A stretch of DNA of 64,000 nucleotides from Escherichia phage ECCR664: the sequence record OL631257.1. The stretch is one strand, 5' to 3'. Positions 5,944-50,716 of this stretch are shown here, in pieces; position 1 is the first letter of the stretch, and each line of letters opens with the position of its first letter. The position numbers and the translations under genes are program-made. The notes below the pieces were generated by a model. It ran no database searches and was not told where the DNA came from. It worked only from the letters and a program-made list of their open reading frames with translations.

Positions 5944-7069
5944 ATGGAAAAATTTATGGCTAAGTTTGGACAAGGATACGTCCAAACGCCGTTTTTATCG
6001 GAAAGCAATTCAGTACGATTTAAATTAAGCATAGCGGGCTCTTGCCCGCTATCAACATCTCCTGCTTATATTAAGTTCCAGGATAATCCACTTGGGTCTC
6101 AGGTTTTTCCGTTGGATTAAACGTTCGTGTAATAAACCCTACAACAGGTACAGTAGTTGAATCTAAGACATATAATTTCTCTACTGAAAACGACACCACG
6201 TCAAGTGCATTTGTTACTTTCATGGACACATATGCTTCAAATTTTATATTTGCTCTTGTTACTAACGCTAAAACAAACTTTCCACCTGAAGTTCTTGCAT
6301 GGTTTAATAAAGCCGGAAGTTCTGTTATTCCATTAGCTCAACAAGTTTTAAATATAGTGGACATTTCTTATTCGGCATTTTATATTTCTGGTAAGAATGC
6401 TATAGCACTAGAACATATTAAGTATAGTAATAAGAAGACTTCAACCGACTATAGTACACCACTTGATGTTGTGTATGACACGATAGATGATATCGGTGCT
6501 ACGGGCTTCCCTAGTCGTACGTATGAATCGTCAGACACATTTTTATCTGCCGTTGGAGGTACTAATAATGAAATTAAAGGATGCCTACAACATCTCTTAT
6601 TACACCTCTCGCCGGGTATAAATTGAAGCCTGGAGATTTCCTTTATATGAAATTCCAACTAATGGCCGATGTCGATTTGTTAGCACAAGGGACGACACGA
6701 CTTTCTATTCGTTTCTTTAAATCTCCTTCTACTTCACCTATTTCATTTAAGGATACAAACTTTGATGGGGCTGCAGGTGAATGGAAGATATATGAAGACT
6801 ATATAGAAATTCCTGCTGGTGCTGACGGGTTCACGATTTATTGTTATCGTACAGCTCCAGTCGGGCAAGGTGGATTAAGAAACGTTATATTCACTGAAGT
6901 ATCATGTAATGGAAGCGTTTCAAAACCTGCCGAGTTTGGTGTAAATGGTATTCGTGTAAATTATGTTTCAGAATCTTTAAGTGCCCCAGACATAATGACA
7001 TTACCTACTCAATCTTCAACTGATACTGGTAAGGTGTTTGGGCAAGAATTTAAAGAAGCATCAGAATAA
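5944..7069 (+). CDS. 35: gp35 long tail fibre hinge protein (frameshifted)
   Basis: Starts MEKFMAKFGQGYVQTPFLSESNSVRFKLSIAGSCPLS; fragments 6222-6626 and 6581-7069 continue gp35-like sequence; ~374 codons. Confidence 0.8.
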
Positions 7070-7074
7070 ATTTA

Positions 7075-7098
7075 GGGAGACTTCGGTCTCCCATTTTT
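7075..7098 (+). terminator. Intrinsic terminator hairpin with UUCG tetraloop after gene 35
   Basis: gggagac-ttcg-gtctccc perfect 7-bp GC-rich stem followed by atttttg. Confidence 0.7.
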
Positions 7099-7099
7099 G

Positions 7100-7107
7100 T
7101 ATAAATA
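7100..7107 (+). promoter_or_regulatory. T4-type late promoter TATAAATA upstream of gene 36
   Basis: Exact TATAAATA at 7100-7107, followed by RBS aaggag and ATG at 7132. Confidence 0.7.
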
Positions 7108-7131
7108 TGGTATACATATAAGGAGACAACT

Positions 7132-7796
7132 ATGGCCGATTTAAAAGCTGGTAGTACAACTGGCGGTGCTGTCATATGGCATCAAGGTAATTTCCCTTTA
7201 ATGCCAGCAGGTGATGACGTCCTGTATAAAACGTTTAAACTCTATTCAGAATATAATAAGCCACAAGCTGCTGATAACGATTTCGTTTCTAAAGCTAATG
7301 GTGGTACGTATGCCGCTCGAGTAACATTTAATAATGGTGTGCAAGTACCTTATGCTATAAACAATACAAACCCATGTGGTGTTTATCCAGGTAACGGTGA
7401 TAATGCTACTTTTGCTGTAGCAAATATTGACATCGTTTCGTGGAATGGTATTGGTTTTAAATCATCGCAAGGTTCAGCAGGCCGAACTGTTGTAATTAAT
7501 GCACGTAATGGTGATATTAGCACAAAGGCGTTGTATCTGCTTCAGGACAAGTAAGAAGCGATATGACTGCTCCGGTTGCAGCAAATGATCTCACAAGAAA
7601 AGATTATGTTGATGGACGAATAAATATTGTTACGGATAACGCAAATTCCCGTGTATTGCGTAAAGGCGATACCATGACTGGTACTTTAACAGCACCAAAC
7701 TTTTTCTCACAGAATCCGGCGTCTGAGGCTAATCATGTTCCTCGTTTCGACCAGATTGTAATTAAAGATTCTGTTCAAGATTTCGGCTATTATTAA
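7132..7796 (+). CDS. 36: gp36 long tail fibre distal connector (one frameshift near 7550)
   Basis: [23 protein letters not shown]... and C-terminal ...[19 protein letters not shown]4 gp36-like; ~221 codons. Confidence 0.8.
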
Positions 7797-7804
7797 GAGG
7801 ACTT

Positions 7805-17990: not shown

Positions 17991-18180
17991 TTAAATTACG
18001 TTAAAATATGTTAAAGCCAACCATGTTCCAGTGAACGAACATGCAATGTAAAAACCAGTATCACAAATTGTTCTTAGTACAATAAGAAGTGCATTTTTCA
18101 TAAGTACCTCAATGCAATTGAAAATATTATACAAATCATAGGGATACTAAGCAACCATATTCCGATCCACATTTTAGAAC

Positions 18181-18444
18181 TCATATCTCAACTTCCGCGA
18201 GTTCCATATATCCTTTGTTGATAACCTCTTTAAGGTCTTTAGAAAGAATAACACTAAAATGGTCGTTCATATGTCCATTAACCAGACGAGTTATTTCGGC
18301 TTCAGATGACATATAAGGCACGTCCGAGTCCCAATGAGATAGACCTAAATGAGTATAAATCATCCCTTCGTCATCTGCGGTGTTGTACATTGAAACAAAC
18401 TCACCTGTCACTTTATGTTTTGCGTAGAAAAATTTAAATTTCAT
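18181..18444 (-). CDS. Hypothetical early protein (87 aa)
   Basis: Intact ORF preceded by early promoter. Confidence 0.4.
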   Translation of the reverse strand: MKFKFFYAKHKVTGEFVSMYNTADDEGMIYTHLGLSHWDSDVPYMSSEAEITRLVNGHMNDHFSVILSKDLKEVINKGYMELAEVEI

Positions 18445-18460
18445 GATGTTATCCTCTTTT

Positions 18461-18502
18461 AGATAGGACTACTATATCATAGTCCTACTTAGTTGTAAAC
18501 AC
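18461..18502 (-). promoter_or_regulatory. T4-type early promoter
   Basis: Minus strand GTTTAC-18 nt-TATAGT then RBS and ATG at 18444. Confidence 0.55.
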
Positions 18503-18512
18503 TTTTGTGAAA

Positions 18513-19293
18513 TTAAAGATGAAGATACCATCCGTTGTAGTTGCTCTTGCGGACGATTTTCTTTAGGTCTTCATGGTCTCCCACGAACTTTATAGAATAA
18601 GAGAAGACGTCAGGTGAGGTTTCTTTGACATTCAATATAATAATACAGTCTGCAACTCGATGATTCAGGAAGGGCCCTATGTTGATTCCGTTGCCACCCG
18701 GATAATCACCGCTGTATCCTGTGGTAACAGAAATCCATTTAGAATCCATCTGATGTGTCTTGACTTCTACGCGTAGACCACAGTACTTAGGATGAGCTAA
18801 CACGTCCCATGCATACGTGTACGGGTCTTCTACATCTTCAATACCTTTATTAACATATCCGTCTAGCCAATTTGCTACTACATACTCTGCAAAGACTGCA
18901 ACCTTACAACGTCGAACTACGTCTTCTTTTATTTGACCTGGATCTTGTTTCAACGAGTACCGAGCAGTATCAGCGATCTTCACTTTCATTTCACTAGTCA
19001 AAAACTCATTCGACAGGATAAATGTCGGAAGATTCTTCAGTCTCAACAGTCCCAAGTTCGTCTTTACCATAGATACCTCTGATGTGTAGTTCGCCAAAAT
19101 AAATGCGGTCTCCTTCTTCAAGATATTCTGCATCTACCGGTGGGATTTCAATAACAACTTCGTCGCATTCTAACCAGCCGTAGTGTGCATCACCAGGATG
19201 TTTTACCAATTTAGCACAATAAACTGATTTACACTTATGATGACCACGAAGATTAGCAATTTTGGATTCTGATACGTCAAATGGATGAATCAT
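18513..19293 (-). CDS. Hypothetical protein at the position of T4 denB (frameshifted; ~260 aa if one gene)
   Basis: ORFs 19006-19344 and 18513-19133 overlap in different frames; start placed at internal Met 19293 because the upstream codons run through the rIIB terminator hairpin. Confidence 0.3.
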
Positions 19294-19302
19294 AATTACC
19301 CC

Positions 19303-19328
19303 TAAAGAAAAAGGGGACCGAAGTCCCC
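19303..19328 (-). terminator. Intrinsic terminator (UUCG tetraloop hairpin + U-run) after rIIB
   Basis: Minus strand GGGGAC-UUCG-GUCCCC followed by UUUUUCUUU, directly after rIIB stop at 19334. Confidence 0.7.
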
Positions 19329-19333
19329 AATTA

Positions 19334-20281
19334 TTATTCTGCAAATAATTCAGTAACGTCTGAAATTACTTCATAACGACATGTACGCATCTTAGCATCA
19401 CCATAGTCAACCGGGATGGATACAACATCACGTGGATGAACTTTAACTTTCACAACTTTATCTGAGCTTGAACCAAAGTGGCGAATATAAGATTTAGCAC
19501 AAACGTGGAGACCGCGAGAACAGGTTTGAGTATCATCGTCGTTAACTCGAGTACGAGGCATTGAAACAACTTTACCTGGTGAGTTATCAAATGTACCGCT
19601 ATAACAATCTAAATAGTCTTTACGAACTACTTTCCACGCATAGAAATACCCATCTTCAGTGATTTCAATATCATTTGCAACCAAGAAGTCGAATAAACGT
19701 TGTACAGCTTTTTCGCTCGGGTTTTCTAACAGGTTTTCAAGGAACGGCAGATAGAATTTAAAGTCTTCGCCTTTTTCCATGGAATCAATAATACGATTAA
19801 CCAGTCCTGAACGAATTTCTATACCTTGATAAAATAAACTACCACCTTCAATAGTAACATTACCATCAACAAACTTACTAATAGCTTTCTTGATGTTAAT
19901 AAGTTCGACAGCTTTACTAAGGTTTCCTGCGACCAGATTAGCTTTAATTTCTTCAAAATTTGCATGACTTGATGGGGTCGCATTGTATGCTACGCGTCCT
20001 TCAATAATTGAAATAAATTTAGATGACGCGTTCCATATGATTTCAGGACGATGTCCGCCGATAATAGGTTCATCATTTTCTGGAACTTCTTCGATTACAT
20101 AAGAGGCATCGTTTGATTCAGGGACAACGCCTTCTGCTTTAAAATTCTTAACAATCTTACGAAGAGTATCTGTTGAAATGTCGAAGTAATCGGCAATTTC
20201 TTTACGAGTCCATTTGCCTGATTCAACCAGGCCGTAAGCTTCTAACTGTTCTTCTTGGGACAAGCATTTGATATTGTACAT
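19334..20281 (-). CDS. rIIB: rIIB protein
   Basis: Intact 315-aa ORF; MYNIKCL... and C-terminal ...FLVANDIEITEDGYFYAWKVV...QTCSRGLHVC.KSYIRHFGSS, T4 rIIB-like. Confidence 0.9.
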   Translation of the reverse strand: MYNIKCLSQEEQLEAYGLVESGKWTRKEIADYFDISTDTLRKIVKNFKAEGVVPESNDASYVIEEVPENDEPIIGGHRPEIIWNASSKFISIIEGRVAYNATPSSHANFEEIKANLVAGNLSKAVELINIKKAISKFVDGNVTIEGGSLFYQGIEIRSGLVNRIIDSMEKGEDFKFYLPFLENLLENPSEKAVQRLFDFLVANDIEITEDGYFYAWKVVRKDYLDCYSGTFDNSPGKVVSMPRTRVNDDDTQTCSRGLHVCAKSYIRHFGSSSDKVVKVKVHPRDVVSIPVDYGDAKMRTCRYEVISDVTELFAE

Positions 20282-20290
20282 AATGTTTCC

Positions 20291-22504
20291 TTATTTGGCC
20301 GCTTCCACGGCCTTCATGAATTTAACGATTTGAGCGACCTGTTCTTTAGAAAGAGTACCACGTCGTCCCATGTATTCTGACACAATATGATAATTGGTTT
20401 CGAATTCAATAACCATTTTATCATCATTATCGTAAGCATTATCTTTAAGCTTATCGAAAATTTTAGCACACAATTCTAACTTCCTGTTCAGGTCTCTGTT
20501 TTCAGCACCTGCGAATCGATTCCATCCCCAACGATTATTTACTGTTGAGAGTTTTGCAAAGTCTTTACTGATTTCTTTGTTCTTAGAGCTAAAATATTTA
20601 CTAAGGAAATTAAGCTCTTCATTACGAGTAATATGATTCAAATAAGGCTGTGCTCTACGACTTGGTGATACATACTCATCATAATCCACTTTATCGATTA
20701 GCGTAATATAGTCATTAATTGATTTTTCGAACAAGCATTCTACTTCACCAAGTTTACGAACTTTCTTAGCAATCTGCGGACGAACTACAGTGAACTCTTT
20801 AATACCTGACAAATCAGCAATACGGGTCAAGAAATTGGAGTCATAGTTCAACCAACCTTTATCTGCGTCAAGACATTCAGCATTAGAACGATTACGAACT
20901 ATAGCATAACCTTGGATTTCATCTGCTTCACTCGCTGGAATAAAGAGATCTTCTGATACCCAAACATCGTTTTCATTCTTAAAGAATCGATGAGCACTTG
21001 GCGATTTAGGACGAGGCTCATTAGTTCGTTTCCTGACTTCAATCCATGGCTTAACGATTTGTAAAAGCTCTGAAGTCTTGTACATGTTAATGTTGTCGCC
21101 ATCAAAGATAACTTTAAGGCGTTCCAGAAGTTTCATTGCATCTTCGTCTGTAGGGTCAACGAATAGTACGCTTTTACCAAAACCGCGTGGAACTTTACCA
21201 GTTAATTTAACCTCGTCTTTAGACATTTCAATTGAATTAAGAGCTCGCATTAATGGAACGCGTCCCTTAACGTCGTCAATAACAATTTCAACATTTTTAA
21301 TGTTAATGCCAATCAGACTGTTAATTGAAATGGTTGCCGTTGAGCTACCGCTTTCACGAATACGACGAAGACGAGGGGATTCAACGATATCGTATACGAC
21401 ACCAAGATTACACCACTCAGGCCCCATTTTAAAACGTTTATACAACTCAGAATAAGTTAGTTGTTCTTTAGAGTATTTCAGTGATTCAATATTAGACCCG
21501 GCCTTTTCCATGTATTTACGAGCGGTATAGCCAAGAGAATCAATTTCACGGAACACATGACGTGGGTATTTACAATCAATCCATTTCTTAGAATCTTCAG
21601 CGAACAATTTAGCATCGATTTCTGCAACGCGTTTATGGATATTTGCTACTGTACGTTTATCAAATGACAATGCTTCACGAGACGGAGCTACATCTAGTTC
21701 ACCCATAGGGAATTTAATATAAGCTGTAGTGCATCGTGTCATCATCCATGTTTGTTCTTTAATAACACTTCCGATTGGATATACAATACCACCGTAAACA
21801 GCCATGATATTACCGCGTTCACCCCATGGAGCTTCCTTGGCCAAATATACATCGTCAAATTCTGGGAAGTATTTAATATCTTTAACACCACGAACTTCTG
21901 CAATATCACCTAGAGGACGCATAACATAGGCAATTTCGGATGCGAACTTTTCAAAATCTTCTGGGTTAACGGGTACAACTACTTCTACACCTGTACGGTC
22001 GTCAGGACCCATCTTATCTACAAAAGTCGGCTTAATTTGTGGACCTGTGTCATCTTGGTAGATTACGTAACCACGAACTTCACCGTTGTGATAAGACGTA
22101 AGGTTAAACGTATCGGTATATGCTAGCGGAGCTTTAGAACCGAGTCCGAATCCACCAATGAAATCGTTACTAGATGTTTTAGTTGAAGCAAAATATGAGT
22201 TATAGATTCCTGGCTCTTCGTCATTACCTCTAATGGTGAAATCGCTCATACCAGGACCAAAGTCTCGAACTACAAAGCGTGGGTCTAAACGACCTGGAGC
22301 CTGAACAATAAACTTATCAGTGCAACCGTTAAGAATTTGTCCATCAATACAGTTTGTGATTAATTCACGTACACAAGCCAATTCTTTGTTTGTATAAAGG
22401 TCATTAGACAAAATCTTATAAACTTTGCTATTGCCTTGAATAGTGAATGCTGTGCTCTTACCGCCTGAACCAATAATCGTTTCTTTAGCCGTTTCAATAA
22501 TCAT
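20291..22504 (-). CDS. rIIA: rIIA protein
   Basis: Intact ORF; start taken at MIIETAKE (737 aa); N-terminal HATPase-like region; adjacent to rIIB as in T4. Confidence 0.85.
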   Translation of the reverse strand: MIIETAKETIIGSGGKSTAFTIQGNSKVYKILSNDLYTNKELACVRELITNCIDGQILNGCTDKFIVQAPGRLDPRFVVRDFGPGMSDFTIRGNDEEPGIYNSYFASTKTSSNDFIGGFGLGSKAPLAYTDTFNLTSYHNGEVRGYVIYQDDTGPQIKPTFVDKMGPDDRTGVEVVVPVNPEDFEKFASEIAYVMRPLGDIAEVRGVKDIKYFPEFDDVYLAKEAPWGERGNIMAVYGGIVYPIGSVIKEQTWMMTRCTTAYIKFPMGELDVAPSREALSFDKRTVANIHKRVAEIDAKLFAEDSKKWIDCKYPRHVFREIDSLGYTARKYMEKAGSNIESLKYSKEQLTYSELYKRFKMGPEWCNLGVVYDIVESPRLRRIRESGSSTATISINSLIGINIKNVEIVIDDVKGRVPLMRALNSIEMSKDEVKLTGKVPRGFGKSVLFVDPTDEDAMKLLERLKVIFDGDNINMYKTSELLQIVKPWIEVRKRTNEPRPKSPSAHRFFKNENDVWVSEDLFIPASEADEIQGYAIVRNRSNAECLDADKGWLNYDSNFLTRIADLSGIKEFTVVRPQIAKKVRKLGEVECLFEKSINDYITLIDKVDYDEYVSPSRRAQPYLNHITRNEELNFLSKYFSSKNKEISKDFAKLSTVNNRWGWNRFAGAENRDLNRKLELCAKIFDKLKDNAYDNDDKMVIEFETNYHIVSEYMGRRGTLSKEQVAQIVKFMKAVEAAK

Positions 22505-22806
22505 ATTTTCTCTCATCACAAGTTACGTTTAAAAATTTCTGCTACTTCAAGAAGTTCTTCTTTAGTAGCTGTATCGGTTTGTATTTTATATCGAATTTCT
22601 TTAAAGCGTTCTTTAAAGGACTCTGCTGATTCGATATCAAAAATCTTTGGATAAGCCGGAATTCCCGGAGCACTGCTTTATCAAAAGTTCCAAGTCCACG
22701 TTATACGTTCTCATAATATTCTCTTCAGTAGATTCCTAGGGCACTATTACTAAAGACCATATAATCTATCATCTTATGTGTAATAGTGCCTCAGGCGATT
22801 CAGGAT

Positions 22807-23907
22807 TTACGCTGTGAAGATTTTATCCCACATCGCAACAACTGCATCTCGGTTATACTTCTTCCATACTGCTTCAGCACGTTTAACTCGAGCTTCGTAT
22901 GTGTCAGTGAATTCTAATACAGCTTTTGTGTAAAGCGCAACTACTTCTTTCTTAGGAGTAGAAGAATCAATTTCTACACGCACAGTATCTGGGTCGTATT
23001 CGAATGTCGCATGCGGATAATCCTTAAAAACTAACTGGATTACAGGGACACCTTTAGAAATGGCTTCAATAGAACTATTCTCTACCGTACCCGTGTCAGG
23101 ACACGTATTGATAAGTGCTTTAGCTGTTTTAAGACGTTCCATGATTTCACTGTGTGGAGCATCAATAATAACAGGATATTTAGCTGGTGGTGCCCATTTG
23201 CTTGGACAATAACCAATACCATTTTCGCCTAGTGCTTTAATTGCTTCAAGAGCAACATCAGTGCGACGCATCTTAGTGTCATAACGTTGAGCACTAATAA
23301 TCAAATCAGTTGCCGGAAGAACTTCAGGTTTTTCATTCAAACAAATAACCGGGTAGTCATCAGGTTCAAATAATGGATTTTCACGCCAGTAGTCATAATC
23401 AATTTTGTCAGTAAGAGCTGAAGTCATATGACAATATTTACGTTCAAATTCACGGAATGCTTTAGTAGGAGCATAGCTCTTCCCACCGTTCTTGTGAATC
23501 TGGATAGTCTGATCCCAAATTTGAACAATACCACGAGACACCGGTTCAAACGGCGTAGCCATAAAATTCTTATGAACTTTAGAGAGTCCAGCATCTTTAA
23601 TTGCTTGGACGGTTAGTTTAGTCGGTTCCATAGTAACAACAAAATCGTATTCATGGATGCCGGCTAGTTCAACGATCTTACGAGCCATAGTATAACTCAT
23701 ACCTAGACTGAATTTAGTCAGATGACCAACAGGATGGTGTGTAACCTTCCAATCACCAAATGTGTCATTATCAAAACCAATATAATCAATATCAGCACCG
23801 ATGGACACAAGATATTTCAACACATTTAAATGTACTGCTTCAAGACCACCTTGTACACGTTCTGGGTTAAACGGGACTGCGCGAGATGGGATAAACATAA
23901 CTTTCAT
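22807..23907 (-). CDS. GT-B fold glycosyltransferase (candidate DNA hmC sugar transferase)
   Basis: Intact 366-aa ORF; C-terminal region GTVENSSIEAISKGVPVI fits the GT4/GT-B donor-binding motif E-x7-E ...G.PV(V/I); sits immediately after rIIA where T4 has rIIA.1/gene 60. Confidence 0.55.
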   Translation of the reverse strand: MKVMFIPSRAVPFNPERVQGGLEAVHLNVLKYLVSIGADIDYIGFDNDTFGDWKVTHHPVGHLTKFSLGMSYTMARKIVELAGIHEYDFVVTMEPTKLTVQAIKDAGLSKVHKNFMATPFEPVSRGIVQIWDQTIQIHKNGGKSYAPTKAFREFERKYCHMTSALTDKIDYDYWRENPLFEPDDYPVICLNEKPEVLPATDLIISAQRYDTKMRRTDVALEAIKALGENGIGYCPSKWAPPAKYPVIIDAPHSEIMERLKTAKALINTCPDTGTVENSSIEAISKGVPVIQLVFKDYPHATFEYDPDTVRVEIDSSTPKKEVVALYTKAVLEFTDTYEARVKRAEAVWKKYNRDAVVAMWDKIFTA

Positions 23908-23911
23908 AATT

Positions 23912-23940
23912 AAGCCTTATTAAAATTAAAATGAAGCTCC
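23912..23940 (-). terminator. Intrinsic terminator (UUCG tetraloop) after gene 39
   Basis: Minus strand AGCUCC-UUCG-GGAGCU followed by U-rich tract, just after gene 39 stop. Confidence 0.6.
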
Positions 23941-23949
23941 CGAAGGAGC

Positions 23950-25764
23950 TTAGGACATCCATTCTTTACGAAGTTCTGAATCATCACCCAACAACATTTC
24001 AAAGAGTTCTTTCCAATTTTCAGGAAGTTTAACTACGTCGTACACAGGGTTTTGAATCATTTCACGATATTCTGACTTTTCAAGGAGCCCAATCCCTTGA
24101 TGTATCGAATACTATGCTTAGGCAGTGTATCTTTAGCTTCTTCATACTCAGCTACAGTATAAAACCATTTTTGTGTTTTGCCAATTTGTGCAATAATTAC
24201 AGGCGTTTTAACAAAACGAATACGTCCTTGTTCAAACAATTCAGGCCAATTACTAAAGAAAGCAAGCAAAGCCGGATAGATACTTCCAAGACCGTCATGA
24301 TCGGCATCGGTCATAATTGCAATATTACGATAGTTCGTATTCTCTGCCTTTTCACCAAGAATAAGACCCGTGATAGCACAGATATCAAAGAGCTCTTTGT
24401 TCTTCATCATATCAGCATATGACATACCCCAGCTATTCATCACCTTACCACGTAATGGGAATCCACCATGTAGTTCACGGTCACGAACATCAATGAGATA
24501 ACCAATTGCCGAATCACCTTCTGTTAAGAACAATGTCGTATCTGCATCTTTACCACATTGGTTAGCTTTAATATGCTTATGAACCTTAGCTTTAGTTGCC
24601 TTTTTAGCTGCTTTAGTTTCTGCAGCCTTTTCTGCCGCCAATTTACGAGCTAATGCTGCTTCAACAATAGGCATAATCAAGGCTTCGTTTTTAAGAAGTG
24701 CCTGAGCAATTTTCTTAGCATCTAATTGGATATGATTACGAATATCACCATACGTTGACGTTAAACGTTCTTTAGTCTGAGAATCAAAACGCATATTGCT
24801 CATGTCTCTAATAAACATCAACATTGTGAGACATTCTTTAACACGAGCTTTAGTGACTTCAATACCCTTATATTTCTTTTTAATACCTGGCAAAAGATGT
24901 TCGCAGATATCATCCATTACGCATTCAACATGATGACCACCGTTTTTAGTATGGATGTTATTCACATAAGTTAAATGACGGAAGCCATCTGGTGATGTTG
25001 TGAATGCTATAGAGACTTTATCATTTTCTTGAATGATGTTATCTTCACCAAATTGTTTAGCAAATCGTTTAAAATTACCATCAACCTTTTACCGTTAAAT
25101 GTGAACTTGATATCAGGATAAACGACTGCCAATGTTTGAAGTCGGTCTAAAGTAATATCTAAATAAATTTGAGATAAATTATGCTCTTCAAATGAAGTGA
25201 AATCAGGAGTGAAGATTACTTTAGTGCCTTTACCTTTAGATTTCTTAGAAGACCATGATTTGTTTTCCATTCCGTTTGAACAGTTAACAGTGATTTCATT
25301 TTCACCATCTGACGTAATGCCTGTAAACAACGTAGAGAAGATATTAGTTAAACTACTCCCGACGCCGTTCATACCACCAGTCTTGCGTTCAGAGTCGTCA
25401 CCAAAGTTACCACCAGCCTTTGGAATAGTCCAGGCTGCTACAGGCCCAGGAATTTGTTCGCCTGTTTGGTCGGTAACTAAACCTTGAGGAATACCACGTC
25501 CGTTATCTTCCACAGAAACTTGATTATTTTTAATTTGCACATCAATTTTATTTGCAAACTTAAATGATGTACGAATAGCTTCATCAACCGAGTTGTCAAT
25601 AATCTCATCGATTAATTTAACCAGACCAGGAACATATTCAACTTGTTGATATTTACCAAACAAAAACGCTCATGTGCTTCTTTGGCCGAAGAACCAATAT
25701 ACATACCACTACGTTTCTTAATATGTTCTACATCCGACAATACCTTAATTTCATTTTTAATCAT
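23950..25764 (-). CDS. 39: gp39 DNA topoisomerase II large subunit (GyrB-like), unsplit form including the segment encoded by gene 60 in T4 (frameshifted)
   Basis: MIKNEIKVLSDVEHIKKRSGMYIGSS... ATPase domain (25007-25663), TOPRIM region ...IAIMTDADHDGLGSIYPALLAFFSNWPELFEQGRIRFVKTPVIIAQ (24057-24965), C-terminal ...YREMIQNPVYDVVKLPENWKELFEMLLGDDSELRKEWMS after frame repair; ~605 codons. Confidence 0.85.
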
Positions 25765-25827
25765 GTTGTCTCCTCGTTATGAAGGTATTCTATCATCCGA
25801 AATCTAAAGCAAAAGGGCCGGAGCCCT

Positions 25828-26272
25828 TATTTAAATTTAATTTTCTGAAGTGTATCAATTGCAGCTAAACGCCCTTGTTCACTTTTAACCGTAATGACCA
25901 CATCGCCTGATACGATCACCGAACCATCAACAAATTCTATAGAGCCTTTTTGAAATCGACAGCTGTATCTGGTTCCGGAACTTCTTCAAAGAATTTAAAT
26001 TCTGCACCATAAATCAGAATATCACCTTGCATACTATGAATAGTTCGGCCATAATCGCCTACGGCTTCTACAGCAATCACTGAAACACCATAACCAATCA
26101 TCTCTTCCACAATAAAATCTTTAGACAATAAAGTAGTATGCAGATTAGTATTAAGACGTTTACCAGTCGTATTAAGAATTCTCAAGAAATTATCTTCCTG
26201 TCCTTTGATAATACGATATTTCTTACCAACTTCAAAACCTTTAAAACCTTTAAAAGACGTATTAAAAGCCAT
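25828..26272 (-). CDS. Hypothetical early protein (~148 aa, one frameshift)
   Basis: ORF 25937-26272 continues in another frame to a stop near 25828; hairpin aagggc-cgga-gccctt immediately downstream. Confidence 0.35.
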
Positions 26273-26453
26273 AATTAACCCTTCTTAAGTAAGTCGTAAA
26301 ACCACCGTTCACATGTTTAGGAGCAGAAACCCGACGAGTAGACAGACGATGACATTCAGGGCAAACATCGTTTTCTCGTTCAGAAATCCTTTTAATTTTT
26401 TCATATTCATGACCACAATCTTCAGATTGACATTTATAGTCGTATAACGGCAT
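26262..26453 (-). CDS. FmdB-like zinc-ribbon protein (63 aa)
   Basis: [42 protein letters not shown]: two CxxC pairs with the conserved N-terminal YxYxC pattern. Confidence 0.55.
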   Translation of the reverse strand: MPLYDYKCQSEDCGHEYEKIKRISERENDVCPECHRLSTRRVSAPKHVNGGFTTYLRRVNYGF

Positions 26454-26866
26454 TATTGTTCCTTAAAGTGAGCTTTCAACATTTGATACAAAGACCATGC
26501 CTGGTCGTTATTTTTGATAGTAATCGTCATCGCAGGAAATTCAGACAATTCGCCAAGTTCATCAGAATCTTGCTCTTCGGACGCTTGATACGGATTTCCA
26601 ACTTCGTCAAAGAACTCTGCTTCATTCGTGGAGAGCCAGATAAAGTTTTCATCAAGAATATCACCGCCTGTTGCGTATCCAACCATGCCAGTAGATGTCA
26701 CAATTTTAGTAGGACGTCCAAGATGGTCAACATCTAATACTTTAAATGGTTCCATGCCAAGACGTCGTGCATAAATCCCATTATCAGTGTGGTCTTTAAT
26801 AAACTCTTCTTGGGCACGTTTATCTTTAAATTGGTACCATGAGTTAACGCGGAATTTATTAGCCAT
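26453..26866 (-). CDS. Hypothetical early protein (~137 aa)
   Basis: ORF 26453-26884, start taken at [12 protein letters not shown]; acidic central region. Confidence 0.4.
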
Positions 26867-27091
26867 TAGTAAGTTTCCTTCCAATAAGTTGTACCGTTTT
26901 CAGTGATTTCACGGAAGATACCATAGATAGGCATTTCATCGCCGAGTTTTTCGTAAACGTAAACCACTTCGGTGTAGCATAAAAATTCGGTCCAGTTTTT
27001 CTGTACAACAACTAAATCAGGATTAAACAGAACATCTTCAAATTCATCGATATTTGAATCAGTAGTTACGTTTTTAATGATTTGACGTTTC
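26866..27091 (-). CDS. Hypothetical early protein (~75 aa)
   Basis: Start at [12 protein letters not shown] preceded by RBS GAGGAGAA and promoter-like element at 27103-27140. Confidence 0.4.
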
Positions 27092-27150
27092 ATAATATTC
27101 TCCTCTTGTTTTGATAGGTCTATAGTATCATAGACCATAGTTGTTGTACA

Positions 27151-27675
27151 TCATTTTAGCAAAATAAAATCAACTTGTTCTGCCAATGAACGTCTAAACA
27201 TTAATTGACAACTTCCGAGGATGAAATCAGGTGCTTCATAAACAGCGATGTAGTATCCTTTAGCTTTCAAGAGTTCAACATCCACCTGGTCATCAAACCA
27301 TGCATAAACCGCGTCAACACTTTCAAATCCAAAATAGAACCCTTGAGCCCAATCTTCGTTCAATTCAAATGTGTGCTCAATTCTATAGTATCTTAAGATA
27401 TTTTGTTCAAGGAGTTTATCTTCATTTACTGTAGGACGATTAGGGACATTATAGTTGTCGCCGTGATGGTAGAAGTTACCTGAGAGTATTCCATGCTTAT
27501 CAAGGAACTCCCATGTTTCTTCAGAGTTGTCGGTGCCCGACCAACCGTACGGCGAACGAGGTTCTTTATTCCAGGAGGTTTCCCAAATTCTGACGGCTTT
27601 ACCGTCTTCGATAGCAACTCCTGGTAAAGATTCACGTTGAGTGCAAAAACTACGTTCTACGCGGTAAACTAACAT
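27151..27675 (-). CDS. Hypothetical early protein (174 aa)
   Basis: Intact ORF preceded by early promoter 27688-27733 (GTTTAC ... TACTAT). Confidence 0.4.
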   Translation of the reverse strand: MLVYRVERSFCTQRESLPGVAIEDGKAVRIWETSWNKEPRSPYGWSGTDNSEETWEFLDKHGILSGNFYHHGDNYNVPNRPTVNEDKLLEQNILRYYRIEHTFELNEDWAQGFYFGFESVDAVYAWFDDQVDVELLKAKGYYIAVYEAPDFILGSCQLMFRRSLAEQVDFILLK

Positions 27676-27676
27676 A

Positions 27677-28153
27677 TTATTCTCCTCTAGTCGATAGATT
27701 TATAGTATCAAAACTAGAGGAGAAGTAAACAACTTTATGCAAAAGATGCTGGACAATATTTTTGATTTGGAACTCAGGAACTACCATGAACTGTCCAGCG
27801 AAAACGATGTTATAAAGCTTAACACCATCTTCTACCCATTGGTCGCTAATAAATCCGGCGATTTGCTTAGTTTTCCATGGCGTTCCATCAGTTGCAGAAG
27901 CAATAGTAAATTCATGGTCTTTTACAACTAAAACAGACCTGCACAGTTTCCATTTGAACGCTTTTTCTTCTGGTTCAATGAATTGGCTTTTAACGTAACC
28001 AATGTTGCCATCGGCGTCACGAACTTTAACTTCGTTACGTCCAAAAACCGGATCACTTACATAAAGAACTTCAACCAACTTCCCAGCAACTTTAGAGCGA
28101 GAAGCATCTGATACGTGTACATAATCACCAATAGAGAGATTTGCAATATTCAT
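27677..28153 (-). CDS. Paralog family member A (158 aa), unknown function
   Basis: Shares C-terminal motif GFISDQWVEDGVKLYNIVFAGQFMVV with the next two ORFs. Confidence 0.5.
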   Translation of the reverse strand: MNIANLSIGDYVHVSDASRSKVAGKLVEVLYVSDPVFGRNEVKVRDADGNIGYVKSQFIEPEEKAFKWKLCRSVLVVKDHEFTIASATDGTPWKTKQIAGFISDQWVEDGVKLYNIVFAGQFMVVPEFQIKNIVQHLLHKVVYFSSSFDTINLSTRGE

Positions 28154-40099: not shown

Positions 40100-40100
40100 A

Positions 40101-40596: not shown

Positions 40597-40660
40597 GGTT
40601 TTCATTTTGTTCTCCAGTAGTTGATAGGTCTATAATAACACAACTACTGGAGAAGTAAAC

Positions 40661-41068: not shown

Positions 41069-41090
41069 ATCATGCCTAGAGGAAGATGTA

Positions 41091-41106
41091 AACCCCGAAA
41101 GGAGAC
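41091..41106 (-). terminator. UUCG-tetraloop hairpin downstream of gene 41
   Basis: ggagac-cgaa-gtctcc; minus strand reads GGAGAC-UUCG-GUCUCC with a weak U tract. Confidence 0.45.
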
Positions 41107-41121
41107 CGAAGTCTCCTTTTA

Positions 41122-44173: not shown

Positions 44174-44722
44174 TTAACGAGCCCATTTGATAATTTCTGT
44201 AATCAAATTATTACGTTCGCTTGCATTAAATCCTATAACTTTGTTAGCACCATCATGATTAAGTAATTGATACGTTTGGATTTTGTTATGAATTGCAAAC
44301 TCTTCAAAATGTGAAATGACTGTATTAAAACCGAATGAAGACAAAGTAATAAGATCGTCTTCAAAACTTTCAGTCATTTCGTTACGTGTTAAAATAATTG
44401 TGAACACATCATGGTTTTGGCAAAGACGAATATAATCCTGTTCATAAACGTCAAGAACCGAGTCCGCATCTTGTCGAATACGTCCATAAACCCAGTTACT
44501 AATATATCCACGGTCTAACAGATAAATCTTAGTAGGGTCTAAATAATTCAACATCGTTTCGAAACAGCCAACTTCATTTCGAGACTTAACATCGAAACGT
44601 CCATCAACTGTTCGTTTAGGGAAATCAATCTTTACATATCTTTCACTAATTTCCATTATGTCATTAATGAAAGTTGTTTTACCAGCATTATCCGGTCCGT
44701 CTACTAAAATAATTTTAGCCAT
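44174..44722 (-). CDS. P-loop nucleotide kinase (thymidylate-kinase-like)
   Basis: Walker A VDGPDNAGKTT at N-terminus and LLDRGYISNWVYG (DR motif); occupies the site of beta-gt in T4. Confidence 0.55.
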   Translation of the reverse strand: MAKIILVDGPDNAGKTTFINDIMEISERYVKIDFPKRTVDGRFDVKSRNEVGCFETMLNYLDPTKIYLLDRGYISNWVYGRIRQDADSVLDVYEQDYIRLCQNHDVFTIILTRNEMTESFEDDLITLSSFGFNTVISHFEEFAIHNKIQTYQLLNHDGANKVIGFNASERNNLITEIIKWAR

Positions 44723-44723
44723 T

Positions 44724-45623
44724 TTATTCCTCGATTACGACATCTTCGTATTTAGGTATATTATACGGTGAAGAAATTAAAGCATTAAAGTAGATGAACT
44801 CACCAAGACCTGGATGGAATACTTCTTCAGGATTTTCGAAATATTGAATCTTCGGACGTCCTTTAAGAATTTGATAGTACTCAGTTTTAGTTGGATTAAA
44901 AATTCGAATCAGCGCTTCTTCGGGATACTTATTTCTGTCGAAACTATTATTTGGATCAGTTATATAAAGCGGTTGACCTAATTGAATTGCGCATTCAACC
45001 ACTTGTTCAAAACGATAGCATGGGTCACTAATTCGAAATGGATGAAAAATACCATCTAGATGAATAGGAGCCAAATCACCTACAAGACGCTGCATGACGG
45101 AAGGACGTATAACTTTCTGCGTTACGATAATCTTATTACCATCTGCACCTGCGTTAACCAGCACTTCTTTTTGACGTTCATTCAACACAGTAGTTTGAAG
45201 TGAACGATTAACCGACAACATATCGGTTTTTAAGAATTCGTCAATATAAAAACGTGGTTTATTAGGGTCTGCAGTGATATTGAAATTGAATTCCACATCA
45301 AAAGCGCCGTCATATCCGGTGATATCTGTGATTAGAAAATCACAATCATAATAAGCAATTAATGAATCAACCACAAATTCATTTTCAGACCAGAAATATT
45401 TACGAGTGTTATACGCGTTATCTTTATACCATAATGGAACAAACTTAAATTCTGGGAAAAGACGTTCACATTCTTTAATATCGGATGCATTACGTGGATA
45501 TGTAATCACATCACCTGGATTAGCACGGTGCAAATGAAGTTGGAAGTTGCCATCCTTAAGGATAGCATACTGTCCAGTTTCATAAGACCGCATACTCAAG
45601 ATTGGTACGCGGAAAATAGCCAT
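44724..45623 (-). CDS. Hypothetical protein (299 aa) in the gene-42 operon
   Basis: Intact ORF, tightly packed between the kinase and gene 42 (1-nt spacers/overlaps); no motif recognised. Confidence 0.4.
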   Translation of the reverse strand: MAIFRVPILSMRSYETGQYAILKDGNFQLHLHRANPGDVITYPRNASDIKECERLFPEFKFVPLWYKDNAYNTRKYFWSENEFVVDSLIAYYDCDFLITDITGYDGAFDVEFNFNITADPNKPRFYIDEFLKTDMLSVNRSLQTTVLNERQKEVLVNAGADGNKIIVTQKVIRPSVMQRLVGDLAPIHLDGIFHPFRISDPCYRFEQVVECAIQLGQPLYITDPNNSFDRNKYPEEALIRIFNPTKTEYYQILKGRPKIQYFENPEEVFHPGLGEFIYFNALISSPYNIPKYEDVVIEE

Positions 45624-46339
45624 TAGTCAAGGAATCCTTTAACATAATCAAAATCACGTTCAAACACATGGGCACTTACCATGGTATGAGTATAATCACC
45701 AACTTCTACACCACATTCGTTAGCGATATAATGAAGTAATTTTCCTTGGAGATAAAAATCCAACTGCATAACAACAGCACAGTTCTGAGAACGCATATGA
45801 CAGTGGGTATAAAGCTTACCATCACGAATATAATAAGTCACTGAGTCAGTACATGGATATTCAAGTGTTTCGTCCGAATCAAGCAAAGCCTGATCAGAAC
45901 TTTCTAGAATTTGGAACACAACTCTTCGAGAGTTAGGTTTCTCTTTAAGTTCTTTTAGAAGAGCTGGTAATTGGGCCACAATGCGAGGACCGTAGAAAGT
46001 GTTGAAGTTCGCCGGCAAAACATCTGATTTTGGTTTAGAAATAAATTTAGCGACATTAGGATATGCCTTAAACGCTTCTTCTGCGTTGGTACCACCAGAA
46101 ATCATAAACTTCCAGAAGTCTTCGGCATATTCATAAGAGATGCGGTTAATACGTGGGTCGGTCATTTTGAATGATGATGGAGTGTCAACAACTACTGTCA
46201 TGGACCCGATTTCATTACAACGTCCAATACGAGAATCAGTTACGAATTCGGGGTTTTCTAAAATTTCACGATTGACTGCTTTAAATGCGGCTTGAAAATC
46301 TGCGGCTTTGATATATTTCATTGTGTTATGTTTTCCCAT
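45623..46339 (-). CDS. 42: gp42 dCMP hydroxymethylase (thymidylate-synthase family)
   Basis: ...YPCTDSVTYYIRDGKLYTHCHMRSQNCAVVMQLDFYLQ... aligns with the T4 gp42 active-site region (CT..V.Y.IRD......MRS.D). Confidence 0.7.
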   Translation of the reverse strand: MGKHNTMKYIKAADFQAAFKAVNREILENPEFVTDSRIGRCNEIGSMTVVVDTPSSFKMTDPRINRISYEYAEDFWKFMISGGTNAEEAFKAYPNVAKFISKPKSDVLPANFNTFYGPRIVAQLPALLKELKEKPNSRRVVFQILESSDQALLDSDETLEYPCTDSVTYYIRDGKLYTHCHMRSQNCAVVMQLDFYLQGKLLHYIANECGVEVGDYTHTMVSAHVFERDFDYVKGFLD

Positions 46340-46621
46340 GTTTACCTCAATACAATTTATTATATACTCAATTCGTAAAGCTTATTTGAATTTCTTGGCA
46401 ATGTTGATATAACGTAAAGCTTCAGAATCTATACTTCCAAGAACACTATGAAGGAATGCATCAGTGTAGTATTCCAATTGAACAGGTTCTTTAATCACTT
46501 TAGCCGCTTTGGTTTCAAACAGGCCCATAAGGGCCTTTTAAGAATTTGTTCGTTAGTGTTCAGTTTTATAGTCAAAATCTCTTCATTAAGTTTATAATTA
46601 AAAGTTTTTCTAGAAATCATT

Positions 46622-47774
46622 CCGGGTACCTCAAAGCGTCATCAGAGTTAGTTATATCAATAATAGATATAGAGTTTTCTGATAACCCATTTTTAGATAA
46701 CTGACGTTTATAATATCTTTCACAATATGTACACGTCGTCCCGCAGATTTCATTAGCACAATCGAAATCTGGATGTCTGAACCACCTTTTTCTAAAAAGC
46801 CATCTAACAAAGAGGTTTCAATATTTACTGTATGTGAAAACTCAGTCTCATTTTCAAGAGTGAAAATAGTCTCTAAAGGCTTCCACAGTTCTAACAAATT
46901 ACCTTCAAACTTTTCAGAAGCGTATGCTTCAAGAACTTTCAAAATGTAGTCGGTGCTACCTGTACGTCCTGAAACTTTGAATTGAGTGATACCAATATCA
47001 TTATAAAGTTTCAAATCTTGAGGACGAACAAAACGAGTTCTCAACCAGTTAAATGGGTCTGTATCACGAGCTTTAATACAGTGCTGCATAGGATATCCGT
47101 TTAAGGATTTAGCATCATCAGCTGTAACATCAGTACTATGGAAAATATAGCAAGAGTCACGATAGCTACAATGTGTTGTATACCCTTTACCAGCATTAGA
47201 ACAGAACTCATTTACAAGAACTTCAAATATTATATTGTTCTTATTGCAAAACTCTGCTGCACGCTTCAGGAAAGAAACTGAACGGTTCTTATGAATTCCG
47301 CAGCAGACTTTTTTGATGTTATATTGGTCGTGCAAGTATTTGATTTGAGTTACAGCATCAACATGTAGAATTGTTGAAACTTCAATCTCAATGTCTTTAT
47401 TGACTTCACGAACAATTTCCATAACAACAGGGTTAGCGATAGTAATACGCCATACGCCTATTGACCAAAGATACTGAACATAATCCTGAATAGCTTTCTT
47501 CTTCCACTCAACTAGTTCTCTTTTGAACCAGGATTTATCGTGTTGAGTGTATAGTTAAAGCAAATACCTAATTCGTTACAACGTTTAACGTAGTCTTCTA
47601 ACATCTTTTGTCAACGTCAGGAAGCCTAAAATCAGGTCTGGCTGCTACAAAAGCCATTTCTCTTGTAGAACCATATACTTCGTTTATCAAGCTATTAGGA
47701 TAGGTTTTATTGAGCTCTACGATTTTATCAAGAAGAGCTAAATCAAAATTCGTTCCGATTTTAAAAGTATTCAT
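46622..47774 (-). CDS. Hypothetical protein (~380 aa, at least two frame breaks); Cys-rich C-terminal segment
   Basis: N-terminal MNTFKIGTNFDLALLDKIVELNK...; 256-aa fragment 46652-47422; an alternative frame near the 3' end encodes ...FDCANEICGTTCTYCERYYK (CxxxCxxC). Confidence 0.35.
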
Positions 47775-47828
47775 TTTTGCATCTCGCGTTAATTGATGCG
47801 ATGGTTTTTGCAGGTCTTACTTAAATTA

Positions 47829-48230
47829 TTATAGATTCGGTTTATACGATTTAAATGTTTCGAATTCGCCTTTATTCATAAGAGCTTTGAATTCGTCAGG
47901 ACGCATAGCTTTGTCGTCGATAATCCAATCATATACTGGTTTATGTGTTAGCAAATTATGGTACTTCAAACCAATGTTTTCCAAGTTCTGAATCAGACTT
48001 GGGAGAATGTCAATTGCTATACGACCAGGACCTACCGACTTCATACCACGAGCCGTGTAAAGCGTTATGGTATGCCCTGCATCATACAGGGCATTAATGG
48101 CGGACACCATTTCGACGTCTGGTTTGAAGTTCACGTAATCACGATTGTTATTCCACTCTGTTATACAATCATCGACATCAAAACAAAGATTAAGCATGTT
48201 TTCTACACGGTGCATTAGATTCGTTCCCAT
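47829..48230 (-). CDS. HAD-superfamily phosphatase
   Basis: Motif I LCFDVDDCIT, motif II ...TLYTARG, motif IV WIIDDK; true start probably the internal Met MLNLCFDVDD. Confidence 0.55.
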   Translation of the reverse strand: MGTNLMHRVENMLNLCFDVDDCITEWNNNRDYVNFKPDVEMVSAINALYDAGHTITLYTARGMKSVGPGRIAIDILPSLIQNLENIGLKYHNLLTHKPVYDWIIDDKAMRPDEFKALMNKGEFETFKSYKPNL

Positions 48231-48285
48231 TGATGAGTGATATCGCCACCGATTGGACGATAGGAAACACCAGTTTCTTTATCAG

Positions 48286-49104
48286 TTAGTACCCATTTAC
48301 CAGGATTTTTGTAATCAGAGTAGCCGTTACAGGTTCTGCTACGTCATAACTAATAGAGCCGTCCTGAAGTACACGGCCCATGTTACGTAATTGCTTAGTC
48401 AGAAGTTCCATGCCTTTATAATATGCGGCTACCGCTTTAAGTGGATTATTCTTGAAATAACCACCTAATGCAATCCAGATAATTGCTACTGCCAAATGAT
48501 GATACTCGTTAAACGAACTCATCTTTCCATATTTGTAAACTAGTGGATTGATGTTAATAGTCACATTACAAGTTGTTTCATCAATAATAAACTGGCCCCA
48601 GGTCGGATTAGCGTTGAATTCATCATAACCTGAAACAGCATAAAGCACTTTAGCTTCATCATACAATTTTGGCCCGTAAATCTTGGTTTCACCAAAATAT
48701 CCACGAGGGTCGATAAACTTGACTTCGCCGTTATCAGTAATCATGGTATTACTGAAGTTCGGGTCACCGTGAATAACAGAGTACTGTCCCTGAGAACGGT
48801 TATGATAACGAATAAGGTGTTCTAAAGCTTGTTTCAACATTGGCTTCAGACGTCCAATCTTAGTGTAGTTCACACGTGTGATTTTACCAAATGAATCAAT
48901 CAATGGTTGAATGCTTTCACAACGATCAATAACTTTCGTATAGAATTCTTTAGTGAAATCACGACGAACAGTTTCAGGACTTACAAAATAAGCGTCTGTG
49001 CTGAATTTCAGTGCATCTAAAATTGCATCAACAATTTGTGGACGAGCAAGACTTGATTTGGATTTAATATATTCAAATGCTGGCTTACCTTTAATACGTT
49101 CCAT
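48286..49104 (-). CDS. Kinase of the aminoglycoside-phosphotransferase / choline-kinase fold (putative sugar kinase)
   Basis: Brenner-type catalytic motif VIHGDPNFSNTMI followed by KFIDPRGYFGE. Confidence 0.55.
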   Translation of the reverse strand: MERIKGKPAFEYIKSKSSLARPQIVDAILDALKFSTDAYFVSPETVRRDFTKEFYTKVIDRCESIQPLIDSFGKITRVNYTKIGRLKPMLKQALEHLIRYHNRSQGQYSVIHGDPNFSNTMITDNGEVKFIDPRGYFGETKIYGPKLYDEAKVLYAVSGYDEFNANPTWGQFIIDETTCNVTININPLVYKYGKMSSFNEYHHLAVAIIWIALGGYFKNNPLKAVAAYYKGMELLTKQLRNMGRVLQDGSISYDVAEPVTATLITKILVNGY

Positions 49105-49130
49105 AATAAAGTGGCCGCCAGGATGATAAC

Positions 49131-49900
49131 TTACAATCCGTGGAACTGAATCTGATTTAACTTTCTTATACCAATTGACTTCATCTTTTGAAGTGCAACG
49201 CCCTGTTCTGTTAAAGCAATCTTTGTTACCGTTTCTTCGCCAATTTCAACTGCATTAAAACTACGATTAAGTTCACGAACTTCATGAGCTTTTTCAAGTT
49301 TAGGCATATCACCAAGGTCGATGATATTCATAAGCTCTGATTTATTGAATGCGCCGCTGTAAAGGAATTCTACAAAATCACGTCCTTTGCAGTATTCGTG
49401 AATTTCCTCATCAGTAGAACCCATGTAGAATTCCCAGTCTTTGAACTGATAAATTCCTACAACATTACCGCCTGTTGAACCTACGTTAGTGATATTTTCA
49501 CCATCGAAATTATATCGACATTCATCACCTTTAACATAGATTGCGTTAACATTCCAAGACCATGAACCAAAATCAGGAATAATATCACACCAGTTAACAA
49601 CTACGTTATGGCCGTCTAAATCTTTATGTAATTTAGCAAGAGCATAAGCAGAACCATACGCTTCATCAACTGTACGAATAGTCACATTGAACCCTTCTTG
49701 CTCACAATAAGCTCGAACGGTTTCAGCAAATTTTGAATGAACTACTACAATAATTTCATCTGCGCCAAGGTCAGAATAAATTGTGTACAAATTGCTCAGA
49801 ATAGTGTCTTGTTTATAGTTCACAAGAACTTTTGGAATATGGTGAGTAATTGGATATAAACGAGTTGCCAATCCAGCACCAAGAATAACAGCTTTTTCAT
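49131..49900 (-). CDS. Sugar-phosphate nucleotidyltransferase (frameshifted near N-terminus)
   Basis: After frame repair N-terminus reads MKKAVILGAGLATRLYPIT, the G-x-G-T-R-L-x-P-x-T nucleotidyltransferase signature; 246-aa fragment 49131-49871. Confidence 0.6.
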
Positions 49901-49941: not shown

Positions 49942-50085
49942 CTAGTTAAAGCATTCATACTTTGCCTGTAGACCAATCATAATCCATCCAATTACAAGTG
50001 TTGGAATCATTACTGGAGCCGTTAAGCTCCAGTAGATAGTCATGACAAGCATCAATAGTAAAAGTCCTATTGTTATTGCTTTCAT
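49942..50085 (-). CDS. Small membrane protein (47 aa), position of T4 imm
   Basis: MKAITIGLLLLMLVMTIYWSLTAPVMIPTLVIGWIMIGLQAKYECFN; ATGA overlap with the SIS gene stop. Confidence 0.35.
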   Translation of the reverse strand: MKAITIGLLLLMLVMTIYWSLTAPVMIPTLVIGWIMIGLQAKYECFN

Positions 50086-50716
50086 TGTTCGCCTCGTAAC
50101 ATGGCACCTAGTGCACCGCCAGGGTGGAACTTAAGGAAGTCATTAGAGGTAAATCCACGTTCAGACGAAAGGTTGATAGCGAACGTATCGATAAGCGCTA
50201 ACAACAATGTAGTGGACATTGTCGGAGCTAAAGAGTTCTCGTCGACTTCCACCGCGATACCGGTACAGAACGTATAATCAAAAGAGCTTCGTATTCTTGC
50301 GGAATGTCAGGGTTACAATGTAACAGAATCTGTTTAACCTGAGGACGAATCATACGAAGATGTTTAGCAACACCTATCATTTCTTCAGTCTTACCAGAAC
50401 GACTAATATGAATCAACACATCATTAGGCGCAATGAATCCTGCATCACCGTGAGAATAATGCCCGGTGTTCAAGTACATACTCGGGATACCGAGTGAAGC
50501 AAATGTCTCAGAAGCTTTAGTTGCGATATTAGCGTTCTTACCAACACCTGTAATAATTACACGACTTTCATAATTACTCAGTCCAGGGCGTCGAAGAGTT
50601 TCTAGAATAGCATTATAACGAGCAGGGTTTTGACTAATTACTTTAGCCATGGTGGCAAGAGATGAAGCTTGTTTTACGATTGCGTCAATAGCGATAGTGA
50701 TTGGTGTAGTTTTCAT
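50082..50716 (-). CDS. SIS-domain sugar-phosphate isomerase (KdsD/GutQ-like; one frameshift)
   Basis: ...ITGVGKNANIATKASETFASLGIPSMYLN...VLIHISRSGKTEEM and, after frame repair, C-terminal ...FHPGGALGAML. Confidence 0.6.

Follow-up and report, generated by a model that had tools for sequence, protein, structure and literature searches.

Arabinosylated 5-hydroxycytosine is a recently defined hypermodification of phage DNA, and acts as a barrier to restriction enzymes, to glycosylase-based defences and to certain CRISPR systems. In RB69, MS/MS and NMR have established that 5-hydroxycytosine bearing one or two arabinoses stands in place of cytosine (Lee et al., NAR 2026, PMC13326640). The nucleoside with two arabinoses is beta-D-Araf-(1-3)-alpha-D-Araf-5-hydroxy-dC; its sugar is held on C5 via oxygen, in an ether link, and the product of the gene-42 homolog is 5-hydroxy-dCMP, not hydroxymethyl-dCMP (PMC13326640). 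The same bases are found in Mosigvirus NP, at a mono:di ratio of about 1:4, and the earlier hmC assignment has been called wrong (PMC13390438). Double arabinosylation has been described for Bas46 and Bas47 (PMC12923530), and arabinosylated 5-hydroxy-dC has also been reported in Serratia phages; the DNA of Thanatos carries a single pentose on hydroxylated cytosine (PMC12838424), that of DLP3 a tri-arabinose.

Some of the enzymes that build these chains have been proposed. RB69 ORF003c, or gp3, was put forward as an arabinosyltransferase in 2018 by Thomas et al., who relied on matches to GT-B enzymes obtained with HMMs and HHpred; among these was the AGT structure 1XV5, to which the likeness was that of the GT-B fold in general (PMC6024577). 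The authors of the NAR study hypothesize that RB69 gp46:47 is the first transferase and gp3 a "beta-arabinosyltransferase 2" (PMC13326640); the same two-step idea, with the gene lying between rIIA and topoisomerase at the second step, is found in the Durham paper (PMC13390438). In vitro, DLP3 gp76 and gp77, supplied with UDP-Araf, act on arabinosylated DNA and add further arabinose to that of RB69; individual DLP3 transferases were inactive alone, the third arabinose requiring gp76 and gp77 together (PMC13326640). Bas46 devoid of an arabinosyltransferase named Aat is reported to be sensitised to a defence system, which implies that the mutant is viable (PMC13216743).

We analyzed a stretch of 64,000 nucleotides (the window) of Escherichia phage ECCR664 (OL631257.1), an RB69-like Mosigvirus, whose sequence in the region of interest is about 97.6% identical to that of Mosigvirus phages such as AlbertHofmann (Bas47). 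The 366-aa ORF under study occupies positions 22807..23907, exactly as given in the first-pass annotation, which did not mention its strand: it lies on the minus strand, starts with ATG and is intact. It is flanked by gene 39, encoding a topoisomerase (stop near 23951), and by rIIA (20291..22519); in the order of transcription, gene 39 is followed by a hairpin, by the 366-aa ORF, by a small rIIA.1-like ORF (22532-22732, minus strand) and by rIIA. The ORF had been described as directly following rIIA; the neighbourhood is right, but the gene is transcriptionally upstream of rIIA, and the rIIA.1-like ORF is interposed. At the equivalent position T4 features rIIA.1, 60, 60.1, mobA and 39 and, in agreement with the first-pass annotation, no glycosyltransferase.

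The hairpin (AAGCTCC-TTCG-GGAGCTT, 23934..23951, minus strand) consists of a perfect 7-bp stem closed by a UUCG tetraloop, is followed by a T-rich tract, and is located between the stop of gene 39 and the transferase gene's own Shine-Dalgarno sequence (AAGG), which precedes the ATG. Its role may be that of a terminator or of an element stabilising the mRNA, of a kind common in T4 early regions; the scan for terminator-like sites returned this one site, against 1.0 expected by chance, and the match taken alone thus carries little weight.

By sequence homology, the 366-aa protein is a member of the family which includes RB69 gp3, the HY126 glycosyltransferase and DLP3 gp76-77, corresponding to PHROG 8302 (E 2e-221). 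It is 97.5% identical to RB69 ORF003c and 98% identical to the protein in PDB entries 9iqz and 9ir0, the latter entitled "phage HY126 glycosyltransferase with UDP". The orthologs of RB69, Bas46, Bas47 (Bas47_0105) and HY126, ranging from 97 to 99.7% in amino acid identity, share with it both the length of 366 aa and the position between rIIA and gene 39, and no difference of substance separates them. DLP3 gp77 and gp76 are, respectively, 43% and 41% identical to it over the full length and have the same invariant residues in common; unlike the Mosigvirus protein, encoded by a single gene distant from the cassette, they are a tandem pair within the cassette and build a third arabinose, which Mosigvirus DNA lacks. 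The enzyme is, in short, not new: its prediction dates from 2018 and its crystal structure from 2025 at the latest, and its place in the pathway was assigned in 2025-2026. The Bas46 and Bas47 orthologs are annotated as "putative hmC-arabinosyltransferase", a name overtaken by the finding of 5-hydroxycytosine as the modified base in both RB69 and NP (PMC13326640, PMC13390438); for the same reason hmC, the acceptor named in the first-pass annotation, has to be abandoned.

The GT-B fold and the binding of a nucleotide-sugar, both proposed at first reading, are borne out, with UDP as the nucleotide, by the HY126 ortholog, crystallised with UDP according to the title of the PDB entry, and by the structural neighbours of the protein, the nearest of which are retaining GT4 enzymes. 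Two Rossmann-like domains are present, with the nucleotide-sugar placed in the cleft and held by the C-terminal domain. The AlphaFold model of the 366-aa protein itself is poor (pLDDT 57, from a six-sequence alignment) and was used solely beside the solved structure of the ortholog. The family is tiny, 5 clusters having been found among 5.8 billion proteins and 11 representatives among 1.84 billion, and a deeper alignment is therefore impossible.

The segment GTVENSSIEAISKGVPVI, quoted in the first-pass annotation as a nucleotide-sugar binding motif, is found in the C-terminal domain at residues 273-290 (23038..23091, minus strand). Within the family alignment, E281-A282, G286, P288 and V289 of this segment are invariant and E276 is nearly so; at a level short of significance, the segment also aligns with the E-A-x-x-x-G-x-P-V stretch of other GT-B chains. 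Residues conserved throughout the family include G20-G21, R208, R214 and E281, which we consider similar to those by which GT4 enzymes bind the donor; in the N-terminal domain, D88 and E94 are conserved as well and are candidates for a base. The GT4 motif known as EX7E comprises two glutamates in the C-terminal domain. When GT4 enzymes are aligned by this motif, rather than by superposition, E281 corresponds to the second glutamate and Gly273, eight residues before it, falls where the first would be expected, the conserved E276 lying between the two.

Profile and structure comparison with T4 and GT4 enzymes, which had been indicated as a way of checking the assignment, gave a divided answer. 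Cellular retaining GT-B enzymes of the GT4 type (PimA, PimB', BshA, MshA, WaaB/WaaG and sucrose-phosphate synthase) are closest in structure, but just 10-14% identical in sequence, and the Pfam GT4 models (PF00534 Glycos_transf_1 and Glyco_transf_4) miss the 366-aa ORF. Neither Pfam nor NCBIfam contains a model that matches the ORF, even at E <= 10; when the family profile was compared to PDB sequences, the HY126 structure alone rose above noise, and the most divergent family members are the only ones to give Pfam matches, at sub-threshold levels (PF13692, E 0.013; PF20706, E 0.003). The proposed activity differs as well, the acceptor being a sugar carried by DNA and the product being a beta-linkage, whereas GT4 enzymes retain the configuration of the donor.

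With T4 alpha-gt (GT72) and beta-gt (GT63), hhalign gave to the 366-aa ORF a probability below 1% in both cases. When the same two T4 proteins were used as queries in blastp and tblastn, all matches in the whole window had E > 1, confirming that neither gene is present, as had been asserted. The 366-aa ORF is therefore outside both T4 families; its biological role is analogous, since in both systems a GT-B enzyme, using a UDP-sugar, decorates after replication a modified cytosine in phage DNA and counteracts host defences.

The whole arabinose cassette is present in the window, on the minus strand, at about 44.2-50.7 kb, between DNA polymerase and uvsX. Proceeding from high to low coordinates, it begins with the arabinose-5-phosphate isomerase, recognized by its SIS domain (Pfam SIS; 50082..50716, the low coordinate being approximate) and equivalent to RB69 gp55, which is truncated by a homopolymer deletion near 50279, the LF82-2 ortholog being intact (636 nt). 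It is followed by the bifunctional nucleotidyltransferase/kinase leading to UDP-Araf (approximately 48215..49900), equivalent to RB69 gp52:53 and HY126 AfhE, with a Pfam NTP_transferase match at 49131..49871 and kinase-like matches at 48286..49104; this gene, too, is split by homopolymer deletions and intact, with 561 aa, in LF82-2. The next ORF (47829..48230) encodes a HAD-like phosphatase, equivalent to RB69 gp51 and HY126 AfhF, whose role, as relayed by PMC13326640 from He et al. 2026, is to convert Araf-1,5-bisphosphate to Araf-1-phosphate. A peptidase-U32-like gene (approximately 46610..47775; RB69 gp50 equivalent) is recognized by Pfam PF01136 on the 46652..47422 fragment, with homopolymer deletions at about 47609, 47524 and 46791 and an intact LF82-2 ortholog of 386 aa. 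The thymidylate-synthase homolog located at the gene 42 position (45623..46339; PF00303, E 1.3e-15) is orthologous to RB69 gp48, for which synthesis of 5-hydroxy-dCMP, and hence of the acceptor base, has been demonstrated (PMC13326640). The two last members are a 299-aa ORF (44724..45623) and a nucleotide-kinase-like protein of 182 aa (44174..44722), the latter being the equivalent of RB69 gp45 and DLP3 gp78, annotated as thymidylate kinase in LF82-2 and included in Table 1 of PMC13326640.

The 299-aa ORF, overlooked in the first-pass annotation, encodes a second GT-B protein, orthologous to RB69 gp46:47, DLP3 gp79 and Thanatos TH1_063. No Pfam and PDB sequence matches were found for it, and its AlphaFold2 model (pLDDT 93.6, from a 29-sequence alignment) features a GT-B fold, for which Foldseek ranks first the retaining glycosyltransferase MshA (3c4q) and, after it, further GT-B proteins, UDP-GlcNAc 2-epimerases included. 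Profile comparison between the 366-aa and the 299-aa proteins gave no match. The 299-aa ORF abuts the thymidylate-synthase homolog, just as T4 beta-gt abuts gene 42, and is likely to encode the base-proximal arabinosyltransferase, which would attach the first, alpha-linked sugar. The 366-aa ORF had been taken as the transferase acting on the base because it appeared to be the sole candidate; this reasoning by elimination fails, since the window contains two GT-B candidates, and both distribution and published proposals place the 366-aa ORF second.

The Thanatos homolog has been assigned a different function: TH1_063 (4995-5897 of the Thanatos piece compared) has been published as a UDP-xylose pyrophosphorylase, an assignment unexpected for a GT-B fold and at odds with the one proposed for the RB69 and DLP3 transferases. 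In vitro, it was reported to form UDP-xylose and to be unable to glycosylate DNA, a result which counts against the 299-aa family as first transferase; its weight is reduced by the fact that the DNA and nucleotides offered carried cytosine, not 5-hydroxycytosine.

The distribution of the two families is quite different. By tblastn, the 366-aa family was found in 211 phage records, which comprise Escherichia/Shigella Mosigvirus, with one copy each, and 55 Acinetobacter T4-like phages; each of the Acinetobacter records among the matches listed contains two copies. A single record labelled "Tegunavirus" also appeared among the matches; its label may be wrong, or the extending transferase may be present in one more lineage. 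The 299-aa family is much broader, with at least 138 clusters of proteins and with matches in 348 phage records. In addition to Mosigvirus and Acinetobacter phages, it extends to phages of Klebsiella, Enterobacter, Edwardsiella, Yersinia, Serratia, Proteus, Providencia, Pectobacterium, Erwinia and Shewanella, and to Dhakavirus, and none of the arabinose-cassette phages found lacks it; in the Klebsiella, Enterobacter, Serratia, Yersinia and Shewanella phages the 366-aa family was not found. As judged on Mosigvirus and Acinetobacter T4-like phages, the divergent members lying on short contigs, the 366-aa family is restricted to phages bearing the cassette. In DLP3 it is found inside the cassette, in the order isomerase, pyrophosphorylase/kinase, HAD, thymidylate-synthase homolog, gp79 (299-aa family), kinase, gp77 and gp76. 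Both these observations argue for participation of the 366-aa family in the DNA-sugar pathway served by the cassette, in accordance with the first-pass annotation.

The number of copies of the 366-aa family parallels the length of the sugar chain in the handful of phages which have been chemically characterised: none in Thanatos, where a single pentose is found, one in RB69, NP, Bas46 and Bas47, where mono- and di-arabinose are found, and two in DLP3, with its tri-arabinose. In the Thanatos cassette, TH1_063 is the sole GT-B candidate. Thanatos TH1_065 (378 aa), which occupies a position similar to that of gp77, was considered as a hidden member of the 366-aa family, in which case the copy-number argument would have been broken; it turned out to be a peptidase-U32 homolog and was ruled out.

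Taken together, the broader distribution of the 299-aa family, the correlation of copy number with chain length, the activity of the DLP3 homologs and the published assignments argue for a second, rather than a first, step. The 366-aa ORF probably encodes a soluble, UDP-sugar-dependent GT-B DNA arabinosyltransferase, which extends the chain by adding a second arabinose to arabinosylated 5-hydroxycytosine; that it acts second rather than first is the most likely reading of its homology and phyletic pattern. According to this scheme, the cassette (about 44-50.7 kb) would produce both 5-hydroxy-dCMP, through the thymidylate-synthase homolog, and UDP-D-arabinofuranose, through isomerase, kinase/uridylyltransferase and phosphatase; 5-hydroxycytosine would enter phage DNA at replication, in place of cytosine, and the 299-aa enzyme of the cassette would join the first alpha-Araf to its 5-hydroxyl. 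The 366-aa enzyme would bind UDP-Araf in its C-terminal domain, through R208, R214, E281 and the G-x-P-V segment, with the contribution of the N-terminal G20-G21 loop, and would transfer beta-Araf to the DNA polymer, onto O3 of the arabinose already in place, to give the beta-(1-3) linkage of the di-arabinosylated cytosines dominant in Mosigvirus DNA. The extra arabinose may serve as an added layer of protection against host defences targeting DNA. Enzymes called Aat have reportedly been defined by the addition of further arabinoses to mono-arabinosylated hydroxycytosine, in a study which included a Bas46 aat deletion. We infer that Bas46 Aat is the ortholog of the 366-aa ORF; since its deletion is viable, Aat may be regarded as accessory.

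The reverse assignment, by which the 366-aa ORF would be the base-proximal enzyme, adding the first arabinose to 5-hydroxycytosine, and the 299-aa protein some other GT-B-like protein, such as an enzyme handling UDP-sugars, is favoured by the fact that the 366-aa family is the only transferase recognized in 2018 and in the BASEL annotations, and the one crystallised with UDP. The model of the 299-aa protein, moreover, also matches UDP-GlcNAc 2-epimerases, which share the fold, and the published behaviour of its Thanatos homolog, which made UDP-xylose and transferred nothing to DNA, points in the same direction. Many cassette phages, however, do without the 366-aa family, Thanatos and the Serratia phages with arabinosylated 5-hydroxy-dC among them; the 299-aa homolog is the one GT-B candidate available in Thanatos, the closely homologous DLP3 gp76 and gp77 act on DNA which is already arabinosylated, and RB69 gp3 has been placed second in the published assignments. 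We consequently regard the reverse assignment as unlikely. The joint requirement for gp76 and gp77 in DLP3, where single transferases are inactive (PMC13326640), indicates that a model with one enzyme per step may be too simple, and is in keeping with a further possibility, in which the two GT-B proteins do not act in sequence, but form an obligate complex or activate each other, neither of them mapping cleanly to one sugar. In Mosigvirus, however, about 21 kb separate the two genes, and the 299-aa family is found alone in many phages, where it must therefore function without a 366-aa partner; such an arrangement also seems improbable for the pair described here.

An acceptor other than DNA, either a component of the host envelope or a protein, would make the 366-aa enzyme unrelated to DNA modification. 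This might be suggested by its closest structural relatives, which act on lipids, small molecules and polysaccharides, and by one GenBank record, in which an ortholog is named phosphatidylinositol mannosyltransferase. It is hardly credible, given that the family does not extend beyond phages endowed with the arabinose/5-hydroxycytosine cassette and lies inside the cassette in Acinetobacter phages, that the DLP3 homologs modify DNA in vitro, and that the 366-aa sequence, on reading, shows no evident signal peptide or membrane segment.

The stereochemistry of the two linkages raises a further point. Both proteins encoded in the window resemble retaining GT4 enzymes, yet of the linkages proposed for them one is alpha and the other beta; if both use the same UDP-Araf donor, one of the two must invert, a point which weighs against the scheme. 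As a tentative and rather doubtful suggestion, the 366-aa family might represent an unrecognised inverting branch of GT4-like enzymes, devoid of the canonical first glutamate of EX7E, which forms beta-(1-3) Araf on a sugar borne by duplex DNA, possibly with the need for a partner transferase.

For the window as such, the outcome is a corrected annotation and the identification of an overlooked gene, likely to encode the first transferase, rather than a discovery. RB69-like phages are common in coliphage collections and among the candidates for phage therapy; if the assignment of genes to sugars is true, the presence of 0, 1 or 2 copies of the 366-aa family would predict from the genome 1, 2 or 3 arabinoses, and phages with a defined DNA chemistry could be engineered.

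Comparison with Bas47 and LF82-2 over two intervals of the window (18000-28000 and 40000-52600) revealed systematic one-base deletions in homopolymers of A or T, occasionally of G; examples are found at 22505, 22638, 22682, 24083, 25086, 25661, 43905, 47609, 48310, 49897 and 50279. As a result, DNA polymerase, uvsX, gene 39, genes 40/41, the isomerase, the AfhE-like and U32-like genes and rIIA.1 are split, all of them being intact in LF82-2; the rIIA.1-like ORF, 66 aa long in Bas47, is shortened here by the deletions at about 22638 and 22682. A biological origin of the split genes was rejected, since one-base homopolymer deletions are seen relative to two close relatives, and the deletions look like a sequencing or assembly artefact. 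Nanopore basecalling has been published to be poor on arabinosylated DNA. Within the 366-aa ORF no indels are found in comparison to Bas47, whereas many adjoining genes contain them.

Members of the 366-aa family were encountered at three different positions in T4-like phages: inside the cassette, as in DLP3 (6001-8296 of the piece analyzed), in the gap between rIIA and gene 39, as in Mosigvirus, and beside dsbA and DNA ligase genes, in a JGI metagenomic T4-like contig (3040-4224). This variety of locations suggests that the transferase gene has moved as an accessory module.
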